A stretch of 64,000 nucleotides of DNA from Syntrophaceae bacterium (lineage in GTDB: Bacteria > Desulfobacterota > Syntrophia > Syntrophales > Smithellaceae): NCBI GenBank assembly GCA_003139775.1, contig PLGI01000198.1:964-64963 (forward strand), read 5' to 3'. Each line of letters begins with the position of its first letter. Position 1 is the first letter of the stretch. Below, piece after piece: positions 18,983 to 53,330 of the stretch. A program made the translations under genes and the position numbers. Under the pieces are notes generated by a model. That model was not told the origin of the DNA and did no database searches. It was given only the letters and a program-made list of their open reading frames with translations.

Positions 18983-19324
18983 TCAGCCAATGGCGCCGTC
19001 GCCTCGTTCGCCGCTGCTGATGCGGATACATTCCGCAAGCTGCATCACGAAAATTTTGCCGTCGCCGACATCTCCGGTATGAGCTCCTTTGCCAATCGCT
19101 TTAATTGTCGGCGCCACAAAATCGTCATTTACGGCGATATCGAGTCTGATTTTAGTAAGCAGGCCGCCTGCTTCTTTCGCGCCTCTGTATATTTCGGTGA
19201 CCCCTTTTTGTCTGCCCTGCCCCAGAACACTGGTAACAGTCATCAAATTTACTCCCACGGCCTCCAGTTCTCTTTTAACCGCATCAAGTTTGTGCGGCTG
19301 AATAATAGCAATGATTAGTTTCAT
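18983..19324 (-). CDS. glnK: Nitrogen regulatory protein PII (GlnK)
   Basis: 113 aa; MKLIIAIIQPHKLDAVKRELE..., T-loop GRQKGVTEIYRGAKE; directly downstream of amtB. Confidence 0.9.
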   Translation of the reverse strand: MKLIIAIIQPHKLDAVKRELEAVGVNLMTVTSVLGQGRQKGVTEIYRGAKEAGGLLTKIRLDIAVNDDFVAPTIKAIGKGAHTGDVGDGKIFVMQLAECIRISSGERGDGAIG

Positions 19325-19336
19325 ATTATTTTCCTC

Positions 19337-20569
19337 CTATTCAATCACGGTATAAGCGGCTTCGCTTTGTTGAGTCAAATCCAGGCCGACGAGTTCATTT
19401 TTCTCTTCAACCCTCATGCCGATAAGAGCATCGACAATCTTGAAGATTATGAAGGTCATGATTACAGCAAAGGCGACTGTGGCTAAAAGCGATAAAGATT
19501 GAACCACAAGCTGATGCGCATTGCCGAAAAGAAGACCGTTCGCGCCTGCCGCATTGACGGCTTTTTCCGCAAATAGTCCTGTGGCTATCGTTCCGACAGT
19601 TCCACCAACACCATGCACGCCGAACGCGTCCAGAGAGTCGTCGTAGCCCAGTTTGCCTTTAATGACAGCAACAGCAATATAACAAACAAAAGCAACAATC
19701 ATGCCTATAAACAACGCGTTCATCGGGTTGACAAAACCGCAGGCCGGTGTGATCGCGACAAGTCCGGCCACAGCTCCGGTAACCGTTCCCAGAATAGTTG
19801 GTGTTCCATTGTGCCACCATTCAATGAGCGCCCAGGTTAGTCCCGCTGCGGCTGTTGCCGTATTGGTGGTGACAAAAGCGTTGGCTGCTAAGCCATCGGC
19901 AGCCAACGCGCTACCCGCATTAAAACCAAACCAGCCGAACCACAAGAGTGCTCCACCCAGAACAGCAAACGGCAGATTATGCGGACGAATAGGCCCGTAA
20001 TTTAATCCAACTCTCTTTCCCAGCAACAAAGCCAAAACCAGAGCCGAAACTCCTGAGCTGATATGGACAACCATACCACCGGCAAAATCAAGCGCGCCCA
20101 GATTTTTCAGCCAGCCGCCTGTTCCCCAAACCCAATGCGCCAGAGGATCATAAACAAAAGTCGCCCAGAGAATAGTAAAGAGCAGGAAGGCCGGAAATTT
20201 CACTCTTTCCGCATAAGCGCCGATAATTAAAGCCGGTGTAATAACGGCGAACATCATTTGAAAGGCCATAAAAACACTGTGCGGTATAGTAGCGGCGTAA
20301 TCCTTATTCGGCAAGGAACCTACACCGTTTAGGCCTGCCCAACTCAAATTGCCTATTAGTCCGTGAAAATCGGGGCCGAAGGCCAGAGAGTAACCGAACA
20401 AAACCCACTGCAAACTGATTACGCACAAAATAATAAAGCATTGCATTAAAATAGAAAGAACGTTCTTCCGGCGAACGAGTCCCCCGTAAAAAAATGCCAA
20501 GCCCGGCATGGTCATCAGCAATACCAGCGCCGTGGACATCAAAACCCATGCTGTATCTCCTGAATTCAT
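19337..20569 (-). CDS. amtB: Ammonium transporter
   Basis: Amt/MEP signature sequence (DFAGGMVVHISSG, FGWFGFNAGSA). Start trimmed to MNSGDTAWVL (GAGGAGG RBS) at 20569. Confidence 0.95.
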   Translation of the reverse strand: MNSGDTAWVLMSTALVLLMTMPGLAFFYGGLVRRKNVLSILMQCFIILCVISLQWVLFGYSLAFGPDFHGLIGNLSWAGLNGVGSLPNKDYAATIPHSVFMAFQMMFAVITPALIIGAYAERVKFPAFLLFTILWATFVYDPLAHWVWGTGGWLKNLGALDFAGGMVVHISSGVSALVLALLLGKRVGLNYGPIRPHNLPFAVLGGALLWFGWFGFNAGSALAADGLAANAFVTTNTATAAAGLTWALIEWWHNGTPTILGTVTGAVAGLVAITPACGFVNPMNALFIGMIVAFVCYIAVAVIKGKLGYDDSLDAFGVHGVGGTVGTIATGLFAEKAVNAAGANGLLFGNAHQLVVQSLSLLATVAFAVIMTFIIFKIVDALIGMRVEEKNELVGLDLTQQSEAAYTVIE

Positions 20570-20597
20570 TTTTAATACCTCCTCGAAAATTTTTTTT

Positions 20598-20826
20598 ATG
20601 AGACTCAAATTTAATGAAACTCAGATATTACAAACGCCGTGCAGTAATATCTGCAAGTTGAATTATCCCGCCAAAGGCGGAGAGTAATGAAACCCAAGCT
20701 TCAGAAACGAAGTGCATAACCTAAAGGTCATCTGCGACTGAAGCTTGCAGGTTGAATTATCCTGCATAAGCAAGAGTTGAATAACCCAAAGCTTGCTTTG
20801 GGGTTTCATACCCGTGGCTTTCGACT
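20598..20826 (-). repeat. Family-1 hairpin-linker mosaic repeat, copy A-left (forms the amtB leader)
   Basis: Alternating linker words (GGATAATTCAAC.., GGGTTTCATTAC.., GAGTCTCAT) separated by perfect hairpins, e.g. 20623..20652, 20669..20679, 20696..20746, 20786..20801. Confidence 0.8.
20716..20730 (+). repeat. 15-nt core ATAACCTAAAGGTCA, copy 1 (inside a family-1 hairpin loop)
   Basis: Exact 15-mer. The loop is 21 nt longer than in the paralogous units at 20632..20643 and 21603..21614. Confidence 0.7.
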
Positions 20827-20834
20827 ATACTTAA

Positions 20835-20851
20835 GGCAAGGACAGTGCCAA
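20835..20851 (-). promoter_or_regulatory. sigma-54 promoter of amtB-glnK
   Basis: Minus-strand reading TTGGCACTGTCCTTGCC = TGGCAC-N5-TTGC, a full consensus match. Confidence 0.75.
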
Positions 20852-20932
20852 AATAAAACTTATCGCCGAAATTACCGAAATAACTGATGAATTGATGATA
20901 AACCAAGTTGCGCGATTGGAACAATTTTGTGT

Positions 20933-20970
20933 AAAGATAAGAAATAACCAACCAAAATGTAAAGGAATAC
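20933..20970 (-). promoter_or_regulatory. Degenerate copy of the nifH/permease enhancer-like element
   Basis: TAACC (20945..20949)-N9-GTAAAGGAATAC (20959..20970), same orientation and a similar distance (~90-125 bp) from the sigma-54 promoter. Confidence 0.3.
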
Positions 20971-20995
20971 GCCCTTTATACTCTCTCTTCGGAAA

Positions 20996-21197
20996 AAATC
21001 ACGGGTATGAACCCCAAAGCAAGGTTTGGAAACAAATTTCGCAGCAAGCTGCGGGATTGTTTCCAATAAACCTTTGGTTATTGGATAATTCGACTACCAA
21101 ATTTCATTACGTTGCACTTATGAAATTTGAGTCTCATTACAAATTACCAATTCCGCTGCGCTTCGCTTTAGGAATTGGAGTTTCAACAATAAAAAAA
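20996..21197 (+). repeat. Family-1 mosaic repeat, copy A-right (inverted relative to A-left)
   Basis: AAATCACGGGTATGAACCCCAAAGCAAGGTTTGG ... GGATAATTCGAC ... GAGTCTCATTAC ... CCAATTCCGCTGCGCTTCGCTTTAGGAATTGGAGTTTCAACAATAAAAAAA. Both ends align to copy D. Confidence 0.8.
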
Positions 21198-21300
21198 CTG
21201 CTGAACTCTAACCTGACATGTGGTACAGGCATCGGAGGCAGATCAGATCCATTCGACATGTTTAATTAATTTCTTCAGACGCGAAAAAATAGTTCAACTT

Positions 21301-21480
21301 ATGAAAAAAATATTGAGAATAGGATTTATCGGTACTCTTCACATGACGGTTTACCTGTGGCTGCTGCCTTTCGTAATTCTACCGAAATTCGGAAATACAG
21401 GCACAAAAATCACAGTAACCATATTGATACTGGTTTCCCTGATTGTATTATCCAGTCTGTTTATTAAAAAAAGAAAGTAG
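21301..21480 (+). CDS. Possible small (59 aa) two-TM membrane protein
   Basis: MKKILRIGFIGTLHMTVYLWLLPFVILPKF...ILILVSLIVLSSLFIKKRK; no clear RBS and no recognisable family. Confidence 0.3.
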   Translation: MKKILRIGFIGTLHMTVYLWLLPFVILPKFGNTGTKITVTILILVSLIVLSSLFIKKRK

Positions 21481-21580
21481 AATCAGCGACTGAAAATAAA
21501 ATCAATGTGACAGTAATAATATAGCGCCGTGTTCCATCTGACAGCAGTTGGACAAATTTCCCATATTTTACCCACCGGAC

Positions 21581-21666
21581 TTTAATGAGACCCAAGTTTT
21601 AGAAACGCAGTGCACTGAAACTTGATGGTCGAATTATCCCGATTGCGTAGCGTATCGGGATTGGTC
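21581..21666 (-). repeat. Family-1 mosaic repeat, copy B (one X-hairpin-Y unit plus a short hairpin)
   Basis: TTTAATGAGACCC / AAGTTTTAG-AAACGCAGTGCA-CTGAAACTT / GATGGTCGAATTATCCC / GATTGCGTAGCGTATC / GGGATTGGTC. Confidence 0.75.
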
Positions 21667-21775
21667 TTTATTACCACAAAATACCCGGTAGGAAAAATTT
21701 ATTTATATTTGATTTTATGACACATTTTTCTCTTTTCATTTTTTTGAATTGATATAGGATTGCACAAAATACTCG

Positions 21776-21790
21776 TGACCTTTAGGTTAT
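21776..21790 (-). repeat. 15-nt core ATAACCTAAAGGTCA, copy 2
   Basis: Exact reverse complement TGACCTTTAGGTTAT, flanked by direct AAAATAC...AAAATAC. Confidence 0.7.
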
Positions 21791-22456: not shown

Positions 22457-22583
22457 ATAACCCCTATAAGGCTTCTTCTTGTCAAGAGCAAAATATTTCC
22501 TTGACGGAAAAAGGTGATTGCAAGAACAATTTTCGCCAGGGCACGGAGTTGCGGTAACAGAGGCAGCGATGCCGGCTTCCTGC

Positions 22584-22608
22584 TGGTTCAATCATTCTGA
22601 TTGAACCA
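22584..22608. repeat. Palindrome TGGTTCAATC-N5-GATTGAACCA, copy 1
   Basis: Perfect 9-10 bp arms, loop ATTCT. Confidence 0.8.
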
Positions 22609-22693
22609 TTTATTTAATTTTGCTATAAATTCCCAATGATTCGCTTTTATCGAAGGACAATCGAATCAGCAAATATAAAAATATCTAAATGCT

Positions 22694-22719
22694 CGGTTCA
22701 ATCTACAAGATTGAACCAG
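22694..22719. repeat. Palindrome GGTTCAATC-N5-GATTGAACC, copy 2
   Basis: Same arms, different loop (TACAA), 110 bp from copy 1 and ~90 bp upstream of the 22808 ORF. Confidence 0.8.
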
Positions 22720-22807
22720 CCTAAGAGTATATTAATTATTTTGAGTAAATAAATGATAATAACAGCATAACTTAGCAGCAATAAAAGCAACATCGAATGG
22801 AGAATAT

Positions 22808-23599
22808 ATGTTATCGGACAAAGAAACCGAAAAAGATGACAAAAGACAACGTGATATTGGGTTGCTGTCCAGTCGGACTGCGATAATAGTTGCACTATTG
22901 GCAGCCTTTACTGCAATCGTCACTTTGCTTCTCAATTATTGGTTGGTTGAGCGAACCCGCACTGATATTGCAGCGCAAACCATTGCTCTCGAAAAAATTA
23001 AAGTCGACATCGCGCTATCTGCACAAAAAACTGCAGAGTCTGTTGCAAAGATCGACGAGGCGCGTATTAGTCAAGAAAGACAGTCAGTAGCGACAATGGC
23101 ACAATTGGAATCTAAAAAGATTCAACTCGAAAATAAAAAAAGTAATCATGAACAAACAAGACTCACACCCGATATCGCCAAGCTTTCGAATGATCTTAGG
23201 CCTAATATAGTTATTTCGTGTGACGGCTCAAACAGTGATAGGAAAACAGTAAAGCTTGAGTGTAGTTTTAAAAACAATGGCGCACAACGCGTCAAAATTT
23301 ATCCTAAAACGGTCGGAATGTACGATAAAAACCAAAAGGGAATTAAGGAAGCCTTAAGCGAATTTGATGGTGAATCGAATACAATTCTACCCGGCGCCAC
23401 TGGGTCAAATACCTATACAGTCACACTAACATCTATTGGGGAAATAGTGAACCAGCCGATATATAAAATTGAATTCGACGCAATAACAGACCAACAAGCT
23501 ATTAATCTTACAAGGCGCTTGGCTAGCGGATACATCACCGAAGCAGAATTAAAAGAACTATCACGGCAAGGTTACACCATTAACCTGCATTTTAACTGA
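22808..23599 (+). CDS. Hypothetical protein: N-terminal TM anchor, coiled-coil, C-terminal beta-rich domain
   Basis: 263 aa; TM AIIVALLAAFTAIVTLLLNYWLV, then a heptad-like Q/K/E-rich stretch. No family recognised. Confidence 0.55.
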   Translation: MLSDKETEKDDKRQRDIGLLSSRTAIIVALLAAFTAIVTLLLNYWLVERTRTDIAAQTIALEKIKVDIALSAQKTAESVAKIDEARISQERQSVATMAQLESKKIQLENKKSNHEQTRLTPDIAKLSNDLRPNIVISCDGSNSDRKTVKLECSFKNNGAQRVKIYPKTVGMYDKNQKGIKEALSEFDGESNTILPGATGSNTYTVTLTSIGEIVNQPIYKIEFDAITDQQAINLTRRLASGYITEAELKELSRQGYTINLHFN

Positions 23600-23743: not shown

Positions 23744-23909
23744 ATTTCAATTCCAAATCAAAGATGATATCGAGGCGGCGAGGAGTAGGCACCGGAGGCG
23801 TATAACCTAAAGGTCACACGTATGAAAATACGCTGAGGAAGCCGACGACCCAGGCATGCGCCGGGCAGGCTCCGCCAACAAAGATAGCGCTTTGAGTTGG
23901 GATTGAAAT
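23744..23909 (+). repeat. Family-2 interspersed element, copy C (with terminal inverted repeats)
   Basis: ATTTCAATTCCAAATCAAAG (23744..23763) vs reverse complement of CTTTGAGTTGGGATTGAAAT (23890..23909), 18/20 match. Core GAGGCGGCGAGGAGTAGGC..GGAGGCGTAT..ATACGCTGAGGAAGCCGACGAC..GCCAACAAAG. Confidence 0.75.
23802..23816 (+). repeat. 15-nt core ATAACCTAAAGGTCA, copy 3 (inside a family-2 hairpin loop)
   Basis: Exact 15-mer flanked by direct CGTAT...CGTAT. The family-2 copies at 54583.. and 57794.. lack it. Confidence 0.7.
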
Positions 23910-44588: not shown

Positions 44589-44789
44589 TTTATTGTTGAA
44601 ACTCCAATTCCGAATGCGAAGCATAGCGGAATTGGTAAGTTGAACAATCCCGCGCAGCGGAGGGTAATGAGACTCGCTGACCATAGGAAGCGTTTGTCGA
44701 ATTATACCGCATAAGCAGGTATTTAATACTCCCCAGCTTGCTGCTGAACCTGTTTCCAAAGCTTGCTTTGGGGTTTATACCCGTGATTT
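44589..44789 (-). repeat. Family-1 mosaic repeat, copy D
   Basis: The reverse complement aligns end to end with copy A-right (AAATCACGGGTATAAACCCCAAAGCAAGCTTTGGAAAC ... CCAATTCCGCTATGCTTCGCATTCGGAATTGGAGTTTCAACAATAAA). Confidence 0.8.
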
Positions 44790-44910
44790 GATGTCTTTAA
44801 CTATGATAAACAAACATGATTAATTTTAATTAATTGTAAATATAATCTTGTGAAAAAATGAGGAGTTTGTTATTTTTTAAAAAATATTACCAAATCAAAC
44901 AGGCAAATAA

Positions 44911-46824: not shown

Positions 46825-46832
46825 GTAAGACG

Positions 46833-46937
46833 ATCCTGCGAAGTTGCGGGGTATTAACCCCTCAGCTTCGCAGGATTGTTCAACTTACCAATTACGCTGC
46901 GCTACGCTTTCGGAATTGGAGTTTCAACAATAAAAAA
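46833..46937 (+). repeat. Family-1 mosaic repeat, copy E (3' half of the element)
   Basis: 11-bp stem ATCCTGCGAAG/CTTCGCAGGAT with a nested GGGG-TATTAA-CCCC, then ATTGTTCAAC TTACCAATTACGCTGCGCTACGCTTTCGGAATTGGAGTTTCAACAATAAAAAA. Confidence 0.75.
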
Positions 46938-47061: not shown

Positions 47062-48024
47062 TTGAAAACAAAAGAAATTTATCTCCAAGATATCAAACAG
47101 GGGGACAAGGTAGCTGGCACCTTTTTGGCTGCTGAAAAGAATATGGCCTTTTCTCTGAAAGGCTCTCCTTATCTGAACGTGCGCCTGAAGGATAAGACCG
47201 GCGAGCTCGATGGCAAGGTCTGGGATAACGCGATTGAATTAGATCAACAGTTTAAAAAAGGCGATGTAATCTATATTGAAGGAAAAGCCGCCAGTTATAA
47301 AAATTCAATTCAAATATCTATAATCAAAATTATAAAGAATGAATGGGAAGATGTCGAACCTGCCGACTATTTACCCGCAGCCAAAGGCGACGTTGCCGCC
47401 ATGTTTAATGAAATACTCATCTATGTTGAAAAAATGCAGACTAAACCACTGCAAGAATTGCTGCAATCTTTCTTTCATGATCAAAAAACCGCAGAACTTT
47501 TTCAAAGAGCGCCTGCGGCAAAAGGTTTTCATCATATTTATTTAGGCGGACTTCTGGAACATACACTCTCTGTTGTACGCTTATTGGAAAAAGTATCCGA
47601 ACATTACCCAACCCTCAACAAAGACATGGTTATTACCGGTGGTATACTTCATGATATCGGCAAAATATACGAATTTTCTTATGACCACATAATTGATTAC
47701 AGCGATGAAGGAAGATTAATCGGCCACATTATTATGGGCGTGGAAATGATCGATAAAAAAATTGCCGCTATTGATGGTTTTCCTCCGCAATTAGCACTGG
47801 AATTACGCCATATTATTTTAAGTCATCACGGAGAATTTGAATTCGGTTCTCCTAAACGCCCGAAAACCCTGGAAGCTTTGGTCGTCCATTATATTGATGA
47901 TCTGGATGCCAAGTTTAACGCATTTCAAACATTAATTACTGATTCTACCAATGCCGATTCCGATTGGACAAACTACAACCGCCTTTTGGAGCGTTTTATT
48001 TATAAGGGTAAACCACGGGTATGA
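47062..48024 (+). CDS. OB-fold plus HD-domain nuclease (YhaM-like 3'-5' exoribonuclease)
   Basis: 320 aa, TTG start; OB-fold N-terminus, HD motif (GGLLEHTLSV...LHDIGK). Confidence 0.7.
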   Translation: MKTKEIYLQDIKQGDKVAGTFLAAEKNMAFSLKGSPYLNVRLKDKTGELDGKVWDNAIELDQQFKKGDVIYIEGKAASYKNSIQISIIKIIKNEWEDVEPADYLPAAKGDVAAMFNEILIYVEKMQTKPLQELLQSFFHDQKTAELFQRAPAAKGFHHIYLGGLLEHTLSVVRLLEKVSEHYPTLNKDMVITGGILHDIGKIYEFSYDHIIDYSDEGRLIGHIIMGVEMIDKKIAAIDGFPPQLALELRHIILSHHGEFEFGSPKRPKTLEALVVHYIDDLDAKFNAFQTLITDSTNADSDWTNYNRLLERFIYKGKPRV

Positions 48025-48192
48025 ACTCCACAGCAAGCGGCGGGGTTCATGCTTTCCGCTTCGCGGGATAATTTCCAATAGTTTTTAGCTATTGGATAGT
48101 TCGACTTACAAATTTCATTACGCTACGCTTATAAAATTTGAGTCTCACTACAACTAACGCTTTCTATAGTCAGCGAGTCTCATTAAATTTGA
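48014..48192 (+). repeat. Family-1 mosaic repeat, copy F
   Basis: CACGGGTATGAAC... GGATAGTTCGAC ... CAAATTTCAT-loop-ATAAAATTTG AGTCTCACTAC ... AACGCTTTCTATAGTCAGCGAGTCTCATTAAATTTGA. The first 11 nt overlap the upstream gene's stop codon. Confidence 0.8.
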
Positions 48193-53160: not shown

Positions 53161-53190
53161 CGCTTGTCCTTAAAATCAAAAATATTATTG

Positions 53191-53330
53191 TAATCCCAAA
53201 GCAAGTTTTGGAACCCGATTCCGTTTCAGCGAATTTCAAATCCCACGTCGCTTCACTCCTGGGATAATTCGACTAACGCTTCAAACTTCATCCCGACTCG
53301 TCGGGATTCGTTTTCAGCGAGTCTCATTAA
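53191..53330 (+). repeat. Family-1 mosaic repeat, copy G
   Basis: CCCAAAGCAAGTTTTGG ... CCCA-loop-TGGGATAATTCGAC TAACGCTTC ... TCCCGACTCGTCGGGA TTCGTTTTCAGCGAGTCTCATTAA. Confidence 0.75.

Follow-up and report, generated by a model that had tools for sequence, protein, structure and literature searches.

A lineage-restricted family of modular hairpin repeats upstream of amtB and elsewhere in a Syntrophaceae genome

The DNA upstream of amtB, the ammonium transporter gene of a Syntrophaceae bacterium (assembly GCA_003139775.1, contig PLGI01000198.1), contains repeated hairpins with conserved flanks and loops but very different stems, which raises the question of whether these hairpins regulate that gene or belong to a repeat family found there among other places. 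The stretch analyzed, hereafter the window, comprises 64,000 nucleotides (positions 964 to 64,963 of the contig). An original prediction, made from the letters of the sequence, had described three units (U1, U2, and U3) and had proposed that selection acts on their pairing and on the sequence of loop and flanks, as in a recognized structured element rather than a repeat in neutral decay. This view of the fold is borne out by the pairing and by near-invariant unpaired bases, while the tie to amtB is not. With a probability of about 0.6, the units are modules of a lineage-restricted, high-copy, modular, and probably mobile family of non-autonomous hairpin repeats, probably acting as single-stranded DNA.

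Direct reading of the sequence places U1, U2, and U3 on the minus strand at the positions first described (Table 1). Their 9-bp stems are perfect or nearly perfect, and their flanks and loop are conserved. The stems of U1 and U2 have 3 of 9 positions in common and are both fully complementary; U3 differs from U1 by one compensated pair and one C.A mismatch, the latter being a G.U/G.T wobble on the plus strand only. The loop word TGCACNNCGTTT has exactly three occurrences in the window, all of them in these units, and the flank word GRGTYTCATTA, allowing at most 1 mismatch, is found 12 times where 4.4 would be expected, and none of 100 shuffles reaches 12. The pattern of U1, U2, and U3 is far beyond chance. 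On the minus strand, U1 begins with GGATAATTCAAC at 20762 and finishes with GGGTTTCATTA at 20685, with an insert in its tip; the same module with the identical insert is present in another locus (L026).

With a covariance model, ten modules are detected in seven places of the window, spread over 33 kb among housekeeping genes: U1 to U3, a fourth module near them (U4), and six more. The E-values of U2, U3, and U4 range from 1e-15 to 1e-17; the match of the model (R1) to U1 covers 20688-20756 with E=1e-4, its score being lowered by the insert. The copies other than U1 to U3 were first located by their flank words, at 21083-21139 (+), ~44590-44790 (-), 46830-46930 (+), 48014-48185 (+), and 53190-53330 (+). 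The genes adjoining the modules are unrelated to each other (amtB/P-II, yceG, selB, an HD/OB-fold gene, an AMP-binding enzyme gene, and an aldehyde dehydrogenase-family gene).

In the following, the reader's strand is the amtB-sense strand used in the original prediction, and column numbers refer to the 57-nt module on that strand. Modules were collected by relaxing the flanks to at most 3 mismatches each and leaving the inner 34 nt free, which yielded 181 candidates, 174 of them with at least 7 of 10 inner pairs. As copies were found through their flanks, flank conservation is overstated, whereas the inner 34 nt are unconstrained. In the consensus module (GGATAATTCRAC...GRGTYTCATTA, 57 nt), the conserved flanks pair with each other around an internal loop: columns 4-7 pair with 54-57 (TAAT/ATTA, covarying to ATTGT/ACAAT and TAGT/ACTA), columns 8-9 face 52-53 as a TC x TC loop kept in 173-174 of 174 copies, and columns 10-13 pair with 48-51 (RAC(Y)/(R)GTY). 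Among 168 copies, pair 10-51 is G-C in 117 and A-T in 41, and pair 13-48 is T-A in 109 and C-G in 50. A 2-nt bulge (columns 14-15) leads to the 10-bp variable stem, in which columns 16-25 pair with 38-47, and which corresponds to the 9-bp stem first described plus a constant C-G pair. Inside it come a small internal loop and a 2-bp stem (29-35, A-T in 82 and G-C in 70; 30-34, C-G) that closes an almost invariant T-N-C/T triloop. The 12-nt loop of the original prediction is conserved as claimed, but it is not all loop, since it holds the two covarying pairs 29-35 and 30-34.

Pair counting in a gapless alignment of 150 distinct copies gives 93.3% of cells paired, compared with 74.2% in shuffled alignments, with changes on both sides at 19 of the 20 pairs and a covariation score of 0.528 versus 0.179, although the copies are related by descent and such counts do not represent independent events. 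On every measure, none of 500 shuffles is as high, and when partners are slid against each other as a control, paired cells reach 47.5% at most. The folding of the modules is clearly under selection. The same applies to particular unpaired bases, as T31 and T36 are conserved in addition to the TC/TC loop.

The collected copies uphold the pairing and covariation of the original prediction but not a compensation of whole stems in place. The variable stems belong to a restricted number of types, each met with again in many genomes (e.g., AGATATTAC, AAGCTTCAG, AAGTTTCAG, AAATTTCAG, GCTTCAAAC, CAATTCCGC, AAAATTCAG, and AAACTTTAA), and the U2 type alone has at least 13 copies in many genomes. Among 24 distinct perfectly paired stems, 19, including those of U1 and U3, form one network in which neighbors are one compensated pair apart, and the U2 type (AGATATTAC/AAATATTAC) is a separate cluster. 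Stepwise compensated evolution is real within the main network, and U1 and U2 are two lineages of one family, standing side by side by chance of placement. Their completely swapped stems are, thus, two pre-existing subfamilies rather than the outcome of compensation in place; at a shared orthologous site, too, relatives can carry entirely different stems.

Such discrete subfamilies, shared across genomes, could also arise without any structural selection if perfect stems were made by hairpin-templated correction of quasi-palindromes at replication and if the subfamilies were amplified master copies. A whole-stem difference at one orthologous site does look like copying rather than stepwise substitution. 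Nevertheless, templated correction would erase the TC/TC loop, the bulge, and the tip mismatches, all of which are nearly invariant, and it predicts neither the joining of 19 stem types by single compensated steps, with observed wobble intermediates, nor the strand asymmetry described below. This explanation is, therefore, quite improbable.

The mismatches at paired positions differ between the two strands. On the reader's strand, 80 are A.C and 33 are G.T, and A.C prevails by 40 to 2 at pairs 23-40, 29-35, and 30-34, across many sequence backgrounds. An A.C on the reader's strand is a G.T on its complement, and wobble intermediates are, therefore, tolerated only on the complement; the odd position of U3, a wobble on the plus strand only, is part of this family-wide asymmetry. 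Strand-biased mutation is an unlikely cause, because the copies lie in both orientations with respect to transcription and replication (in co-directional intergenic spacers, 39 have the same orientation as the genes and 36 the opposite).

The motifs that interrupt the helices also differ between strands. On the complement, the internal loop reads 5'-GA-3'/3'-AG-5' (a tandem G.A pair), the tip is an (A/G)C-GNA-G(T/C) triloop (GCGAAGC-like) above a purine-rich loop with AA opposite GNA, and most of the spacer hairpins between modules read CCGC-GAA-GCGG; the reader's strand has pyrimidine mismatches at all these motifs. Folding predictions also give the complement the higher stability, in 142 of 168 copies with RNA parameters (with a mean gain of 2.2 kcal/mol) and in 132 of 168 with DNA parameters. 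The structurally constrained strand is, according to the mismatches and these folding predictions, most likely the complement, and not the amtB-sense strand on which the original prediction had read the units. A K-turn was considered and rejected, as the G.A pairs stand in a symmetric 2x2 loop between Watson-Crick pairs, without an adjacent 3-nt bulge.

The strand asymmetry is also what separates this fold from a palindrome of duplex DNA, i.e., a site for a dimeric or nucleoid protein, or a cruciform absorbing supercoiling, in which the apparent covariation would be nothing but dyad symmetry. Any inverted repeat yields the same pair counts, a 15-nt repeat embedded in some tips (TGACCTTTAGGTTAT, see below) is near-palindromic, and REP/BIME sequences bind proteins such as gyrase and IHF (PMC2817692). 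A duplex, however, has no preferred strand, yet the mismatches are 40 to 2 at three pairs. Conservation extends to the internal loop, the bulge, and the triloop, which interrupt the dyad, and a 10-bp stem in about 24 sequence types is unlike the usual sequence-specific recognition of a duplex, so that duplex recognition seems improbable.

Whether the folded strand is DNA or RNA is suggested by the tip. The d(GCGNAGC) mini-hairpins are extraordinarily stable, and their RNA counterparts are much less so (PMC13037366). The stability of d(GNA) triloops depends on the closing pair (PMC3201870), and GNA mini-hairpins closed by C-G occur at single-strand initiation sites (PMC13037366, PMC3201870). 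Because GNA hairpins are far more stable as DNA, and because the orientation of the modules with respect to genes is near random, single-stranded DNA is favored, and it is most likely the form in which the fold is selected.

At the amtB locus, U1 and U2 belong to a composite element, E1, which starts 19 nt past the TTGC of a predicted sigma-54-type promoter and sits between this promoter and the amtB Shine-Dalgarno sequence; from this position, E1 probably lies inside the amtB transcript. The promoter call relies on the established -24/-12 consensus. AmtB relatives are 88-98% identical, and those with names are labelled Smithellaceae, Smithella, or Deltaproteobacteria. Three of their loci (L110, L111, and L112, with AmtB 94, 93, and 90% identical) keep the promoter, followed by ~25 nt to the Shine-Dalgarno sequence, without E1, which in the window interrupts that stretch between GAAAGC and AAAA... 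A fourth (L113, AmtB 89% identical) has a more diverged leader that is element-free too. Because the first three keep both the promoter and the Shine-Dalgarno sequence without the 219-nt element, E1 is an insertion into the amtB 5' leader and not an ancestral regulator of amtB.

The explanation closest to the original prediction, in which the hairpins are an amtB- or nitrogen-specific cis-regulatory leader RNA (riboswitch, attenuator, or protein-binding leader) co-transcribed with amtB, draws on the place of E1 in the amtB-sense orientation, probably in the amtB mRNA, and on the strong covariation of the hairpins. It is, however, contradicted by the four element-free leaders, by the same modules next to yceG/ruvX, selB, an HD-domain nuclease gene, an acyl-CoA synthetase gene, and many others, by the near-random orientation relative to neighboring genes, and by a mismatch asymmetry favoring the antisense strand. 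There is also no Rfam match at gathering thresholds in the whole window, and only noise at E<=10 over 20500-21750. A specific tie to amtB is, thus, largely refuted, and this explanation is very improbable.

Other elements of the window show similar turnover at orthologous sites. The element of the ruvX-selB spacer (E4) and the one between selB and the HD-domain gene (E5) are absent in L123, L124, and L125, and E6, at the end of the HD-domain gene, is missing from L125 and L126. L122 (HD protein 93% identical) does carry E6, and its head, tail, and flanks are identical there, but the interior is not the same: another stem at the same position, a compensated change from GAC/GTC to GGC/GCC, the 15-mer insert (TGACCTTTAGGTTAT, see below), and ~250 nt of extra modules. 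The head of E6 starts at 48014, ~10 nt before the HD-domain gene (47062-48024) ends, so that the repeat covers the last codons and the stop, and this overlap is also kept in L122. Elsewhere, a composite of ~165 nt in L083 corresponds to a clean empty site in L076 (ACAAGT|CAATAAAC), and an element that abuts a start codon in L059 is missing from L040. L040 and L059 share an identical neighboring hairpin (AACGTGCGAAGCAACGTTGG) and have different module stems there (AAACTTCAA vs. CAATCGCGA). Such turnover is the behavior of a mobile or recombinogenic repeat and not of a conserved regulator.

The composite elements are intergenic, 80-240 nt long overall, and built on a common plan (Table 1). Their usual frame consists of a head, (A)ATCACGGGTATGAAC-CCCAAAGCAAGCTTTGG... 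(beginning CACGGGTATGAAC), and a tail, ...AATTGGAGTTTCA(A)C-AAT (also written ...GGAGTTTCAAC or ...AATTGGAGTTTCAAC), with head-to-tail spans of 83-240 nt and from none to several modules inside. Modules within 200 nt of each other are direct in 22 cases and inverted in 4, with gaps from -5 to ~100 nt. They either abut (...GTYTCATTA|CRAC...) or are joined by small GC hairpins, e.g., CCGC-TTC-GCGG; the commonest words upstream of modules are CCGC-TTC/TTT-GCGG hairpins. Compared with the reverse-complemented tail GTTGAAACTCCAA, the head TATGAA-CCCCAA agrees at 9 of 13 positions, in a subterminal and imperfect likeness of inverted repeats. AAT precedes most canonical heads and follows most tails, which fits the filled (L083) and empty (L076) sites, but E1 shows no such duplication. 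A CRISPR-like array, evoked by the GTTTCA...GAAAC-like words flanking the hairpins, was rejected, as its 'spacers' would be conserved hairpins of few types in dispersed copies.

Table 1. Coordinates of the modules, composite elements, and amtB-locus features in the 64,000-nt window.
Feature	Positions	Strand	Description
Module U1	20685-20762	-	57-nt module plus 21-nt insert in the tip; stem AAGCTTCAG/CTGAAGCTT
U1 insert TCGCAGATGACCTTTAGGTTA	20717-20737	-	21 nt; fills the part of U1 left out of the original prediction; carries the small repeat TGACCTTTAGGTTAT
Module U2	20612-20668	-	57 nt; stem AGATATTAC/GTAATATCT; model match 73.9 bits, E=1e-15
Spacer hairpin between U1 and U2	20669-20684	-	CCGCC-TTT-GGCGG; 3' G's merge into the GGAT of U2
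Module U3 (element E3)	21583-21639	-	Stems AAGTTTCAG/CTAAAACTT; 78.5 bits, E=7.8e-17
Module U4 (in E2)	21083-21139	+	Absent from the original prediction; 77.7 bits, E=1.2e-16
E1	20598-20816	-	219 nt; head CACGGGTATGAAACCCC..., U1, spacer hairpin, U2, short tail ...AAATTTGAGTCTCAT
E2	21000-21190	+	Head CACGGGTATGAACCCC, nested hairpins, U4, second tandem unit (21140-21184, 32.4 bits with the covariance model), tail GGAGTTTCAAC-AAT; divergent from E1
E3	21583-21662	-	Spacer hairpin CCCGAT...ATCGGG, then U3; headless
E4	44592-44785	-	Head, short module 44665-44707, module 44594-44650 (outer stem ATTGT/ACAAT), tail
E5	46829-46931	+	Spacer hairpins, one module 46873-46929, tail; between selB and HD-domain gene
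E6	48014-48185	+	Head, hairpins, module 48094-48150, short module finishing in GAGTCTCATTA at 48185
E7	53192-53329	+	Partial head (CCCAAAGCAAG...), spacer hairpin, 68-nt module 53262-53329 (57.3 bits, E=1.4e-11)
amtB (ammonium transporter)	19337-20569	-	PF00909, E=2.5e-132
P-II gene, after amtB	18983-19324	-	PF00543, E=8.8e-25
Sigma-54-type promoter of amtB-glnB (predicted)	20836-20852	-	TTGGCAC-N5-TTGC, read from the sequence; conserved in L110-L112

The 15-mer TGACCTTTAGGTTAT carried by the U1 insert is a separate small repeat, near-palindromic, with three exact copies in the window (20716-20730, -; 21776-21790, +; 23802-23816, -), compared with 0.12 expected. In the other genomes, 21 exact copies are found in 19 fetched loci, many nested in module tips and others free in intergenic DNA.

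Two further inverted repeats were observed in this region. U4 and U3 together make up a 57-nt inverted repeat (77% complementary; 21083-21139, + / 21583-21639, -) around 443 nt, in which a small open reading frame (ORF; 21220-21480, with an ATG near 21302) encodes a hydrophobic peptide without a Pfam match. Farther along, 22582-22616 and 22686-22720 form an unrelated 35-nt inverted repeat (77% complementary, 69 nt apart), upstream of an ORF at 22808-23599, and each of its arms is palindromic (TGGTTCAATC...GATTGAACCA).

The family appears to be confined to a narrow group of bacteria. A pattern scan (GGATAATTCRAC-N18-48-GRGTYTCATTA, one genome per species) yields at least 109 stretches, and nearly all of the matches listed come from metagenome-assembled genomes (MAGs) labelled Smithella, Smithellaceae, Syntrophaceae, or 'delta proteobacterium'. 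The length is exactly 57 nt in 109 of 132 matches in the fetched DNA, and 161 of 174 copies lie outside long ORFs, gene calls in these loci being crude long-ORF calls. By extrapolation from ten modules in 64 kb, each genome would hold hundreds of copies. Exact module matches were also found in MAGs labelled Mariniphaga, Buchananbacteria, Bacteroidales, and Victivallales (L022, L050, L062, and L071), and in eight IMG/VR 'viral' contig stretches (L114-L121). The viral stretches are probably host-derived regions; for the out-of-group and viral matches together, host-derived contigs, mis-binning, or a broader range of hosts may be the explanation. In the full-text literature, which covers few subscription journals, no description of the module family, or of Smithella repeats like it, was found. 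The family is, thus, apparently undescribed, and belongs with the bacterial interspersed hairpin or mosaic repeats, among which its long AT-rich hairpins, invariant non-canonical motifs, direct tandem modules, exchangeable stems, and strand signature are unusual.

Speculatively, a protein acting in trans, e.g., an HUH/Y1-type transposase or a structure-specific recombinase, would recognize the fold and copy or exchange the modules; stems would then drift provided that pairing holds, while the unpaired recognition bases stay fixed. A more radical version, which remains tentative and is unlikely, holds that the individual 49-57-nt modules, and not the whole composites alone, are the mobile or exchangeable units of a previously unrecognized single-stranded-DNA system. 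A structure-specific enzyme would read the tandem-G.A loop and the GNA-tipped hairpin on one strand, and the conserved junctions (...CATTA|CRAC...) would be where it inserts or exchanges modules. Module exchange would account for the direct tandem arrays, for different stems at one orthologous site, and for subfamilies shared across species. If true, it would amount to cassette-like recombination without cassettes, distinct from REP/RAYT, IS200/IS605, and integrons.

Several results weigh against a mobile family acting as single-stranded DNA, beyond the shared descent of the copies counted above. In ~1 Mb of fetched DNA, the elements have no recurrent transposase nearby, and no mobilizing gene was found there. 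A scan for the HUH...Y motif in all six-frame ORFs of this DNA finds a single RAYT-like gene, in Smithella sp. SCADC (L027, 1128-1772, +), which is a RAYT-like Y1 gene (PF01797, E=9e-13; NF047646, 69 bits, below the cutoff of 80) flanked by repeats unrelated to the modules, namely its own AAAGGGGAC repeats (four copies of GATAAAGGGGAC to the left, two inverted copies of GTCCCCTTTT to the right). The ends of the elements are not cleanly defined either, since the AAT direct repeat fails for E1 and the terminal likeness is just 9 of 13. Negative GC skew across the whole window indicates a single replichore, in which E1, E3, and E4 have their structured strand on + and E2, E5, E6, and E7 on -; though the sample is small, mixed strands in one replichore are not what a lagging-strand-dependent, IS608-like mechanism predicts. 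The wobble (G.T) of the 15-mer TGACCTTTAGGTTAT falls on the reader's strand, opposite to that of the modules. As for chemistry, G.T is tolerated in DNA and RNA alike, so that the asymmetry tells the strand and not the nucleic acid. Finally, the reader's strand is mildly favored as the mRNA sense of the downstream gene (39/23 for tails, 35/17 for heads, and 89/64 for modules), and some effect at the RNA level or on expression may exist.

A hairpin module lies ~325 nt downstream of the Y1 gene of L027. Clustering of the ORFs near the elements returns only housekeeping paralogues (ABC ATPase, PAS, TPR, aconitase family, binding protein, SDR, and AMP-binding). Head-tail pairs 300-2500 nt apart were considered as a possible autonomous element and rejected, as the only long case (L028) is a false head in an Lpt-permease-like gene, according to a translation read by eye.

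The mild excess of copies co-oriented with the downstream gene would be expected if the modules were structured RNA selected by the host wherever transcribed (as an mRNA stabilizer, RNase processing site, translational modulator, or protein sponge), as has been proposed for REP, ERIC, BOX, and Correia repeats. Many tails are followed by a start codon at a distance of 2-27 nt, and 7 of 60 canonical tails have the GGAG of ...AATTGGAGTTTCA... placed 7-12 nt before the start of a long ORF (L059 on the - strand, L039, L016, L015, L083/L021, and L046), where the element tail appears, from this spacing, to supply the ribosome-binding site. The gene behind the abutting tail of L059 (~571-1665) is presumably leuB-like, from N-terminal residues read by eye, and its L040 orthologue is element-free. 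Moreover, the orthologous modules of L004 and L011 are 91% identical, compared with 78% for the aligned flank, and the 2.2 kcal/mol gained by the complement was obtained with RNA parameters.

Nevertheless, the wobble-tolerant strand bearing the purine motifs is antisense to the neighboring genes in roughly half or more of the copies; because the reader's strand is mildly favored as mRNA sense, the strand that folds well is, if anything, more often antisense. A consensus scan within the elements finds no consistent promoter or terminator (the one strong promoter-like match being the sigma-54 region itself), which leaves such an RNA without a conserved internal promoter, and turnover at orthologous sites is rapid. 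The C-G-closed GNA triloop is, in addition, stable in DNA and much weaker in RNA (PMC13037366). A host-selected RNA is, overall, rather doubtful, and a mobile hairpin family acting as single-stranded DNA is preferred.

For annotation, the practical consequence is that covariation upstream of amtB is easily misfiled as a new nitrogen riboswitch, although it stems from a repeat insertion in a sigma-54-controlled leader. With about two dozen stem types, compensated steps, invariant motifs, and a strand signature, the family constitutes a well-resolved natural experiment in structure-constrained evolution. Its hosts are uncultured, environmentally important, syntrophic alkane- and fatty-acid-degrading Smithella; the repeats probably fragment the assembly of their MAGs and may alter the expression of adjoining genes. 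Finding the protein that recognizes the fold could reveal a new single-stranded-DNA enzyme.

Among known systems, REP sequences and the BIMEs built from them are, like the modules, high-copy, extragenic, lineage-specific hairpin repeats in mosaic composites, in which structure is kept while subfamily sequences differ, and for both, processing as single-stranded hairpins by a Y1 HUH enzyme is the presumed mechanism. REPs are, however, GC-rich palindromes of 20-40 nt (PMC3733652, PMC2817692), whereas the modules are 57 nt, AT-rich, and long-stemmed, with conserved internal loops. A REP is defined as a short imperfect palindrome, one end of which bears a conserved GTAG or CGTC tetranucleotide (PMC3733652); neither tetranucleotide is conserved on either module strand in the aligned copies, which argues against membership in REP. 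REPINs and BIMEs are also inverted or alternating, unlike the predominantly direct modules, and no RAYT gene flanked by these modules was found in ~1 Mb.

MITEs and the PATEs derived from IS200/IS605 share with the composites their small size, absence of coding sequence, AT-rich intergenic targets, subterminal hairpins, and presence/absence polymorphism with fairly sharp boundaries. Insertion polymorphism, a criterion for MITEs, is found for E1, E4, E5, E6, L083 (vs. L076), and L059 (vs. L040), and the strand specificity of the modules fits peel-and-paste transposition via single-stranded DNA, as in PATEs. The left flank on the complement is often ...TTTAT/TTTATTG, a sequence also present in the empty site of L076; the element boundaries are ambiguous. 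Clear terminal inverted repeats are lacking (9/13 at best), the AAT duplication is seen in some copies and not for E1, no replication-fork orientation bias is apparent in the window, and no parent insertion sequence was found. Ordinary MITEs, furthermore, do not have an interior of exchangeable modules, of which the composites are built. Because of the missing tag, the direct arrangement, the unclear ends, and the absence of replication bias and of a partner gene, simple membership in REP/RAYT or IS200/IS605 is doubtful.

The tips of the modules, and most spacer hairpins, have on the complement the same C-G-closed GNA triloop as the d(GCGNAGC) mini-hairpins of the phage G4 origin, ssiA of RSF1010, and the phage N4 early promoters (PMC13037366). 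Those are single sites in phage or plasmid origins, whereas here the triloop is nested in a larger repeated hairpin found in both orientations.

The attC sites of integrons, folded single strands read by a tyrosine recombinase, offer another precedent for recognition of a fold rather than a sequence, and the modules might even be such sites or relatives of them. Both have outer boxes, an unpaired spacer, extra-helical bases or bulges, a variable tip, strand specificity, and similar lengths. The shortest attC sites are near 57 nt, and about a quarter of the module copies carry ...TTCAAC / GTT..., which resembles RYYYAAC/GTTRRRY. About 70% of the copies, however, have GAC/GTC and not the AAC/GTT core, which is not conserved here; the outer boxes are broken by the TC/TC mismatch; and the modules abut without gene cassettes, scattered over the chromosome rather than gathered in one array, with no intI integrase gene seen. 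An integron-type origin is very unlikely.

In architecture, a close counterpart is the pneumococcal BOX element, which consists of boxA, boxB repeated n times, and boxC, is intergenic with stable secondary structure, is often co-transcribed with its neighbors, and has a mobilizing enzyme that is unknown or borrowed. The three-part design, a fixed head followed by variable tandem modules and a fixed tail, is shared, but the likeness is one of architecture only; no homology between the two is expected, and they come from different phyla. Unlike BOX, the modules have many replaceable stem subfamilies and a strand-specific constraint with G.A and GNA motifs. By analogy, the family most resembles, in its likely mechanism, REP/RAYT and the elements derived from IS200/IS605, and in its architecture, the pneumococcal BOX element together with BIMEs.

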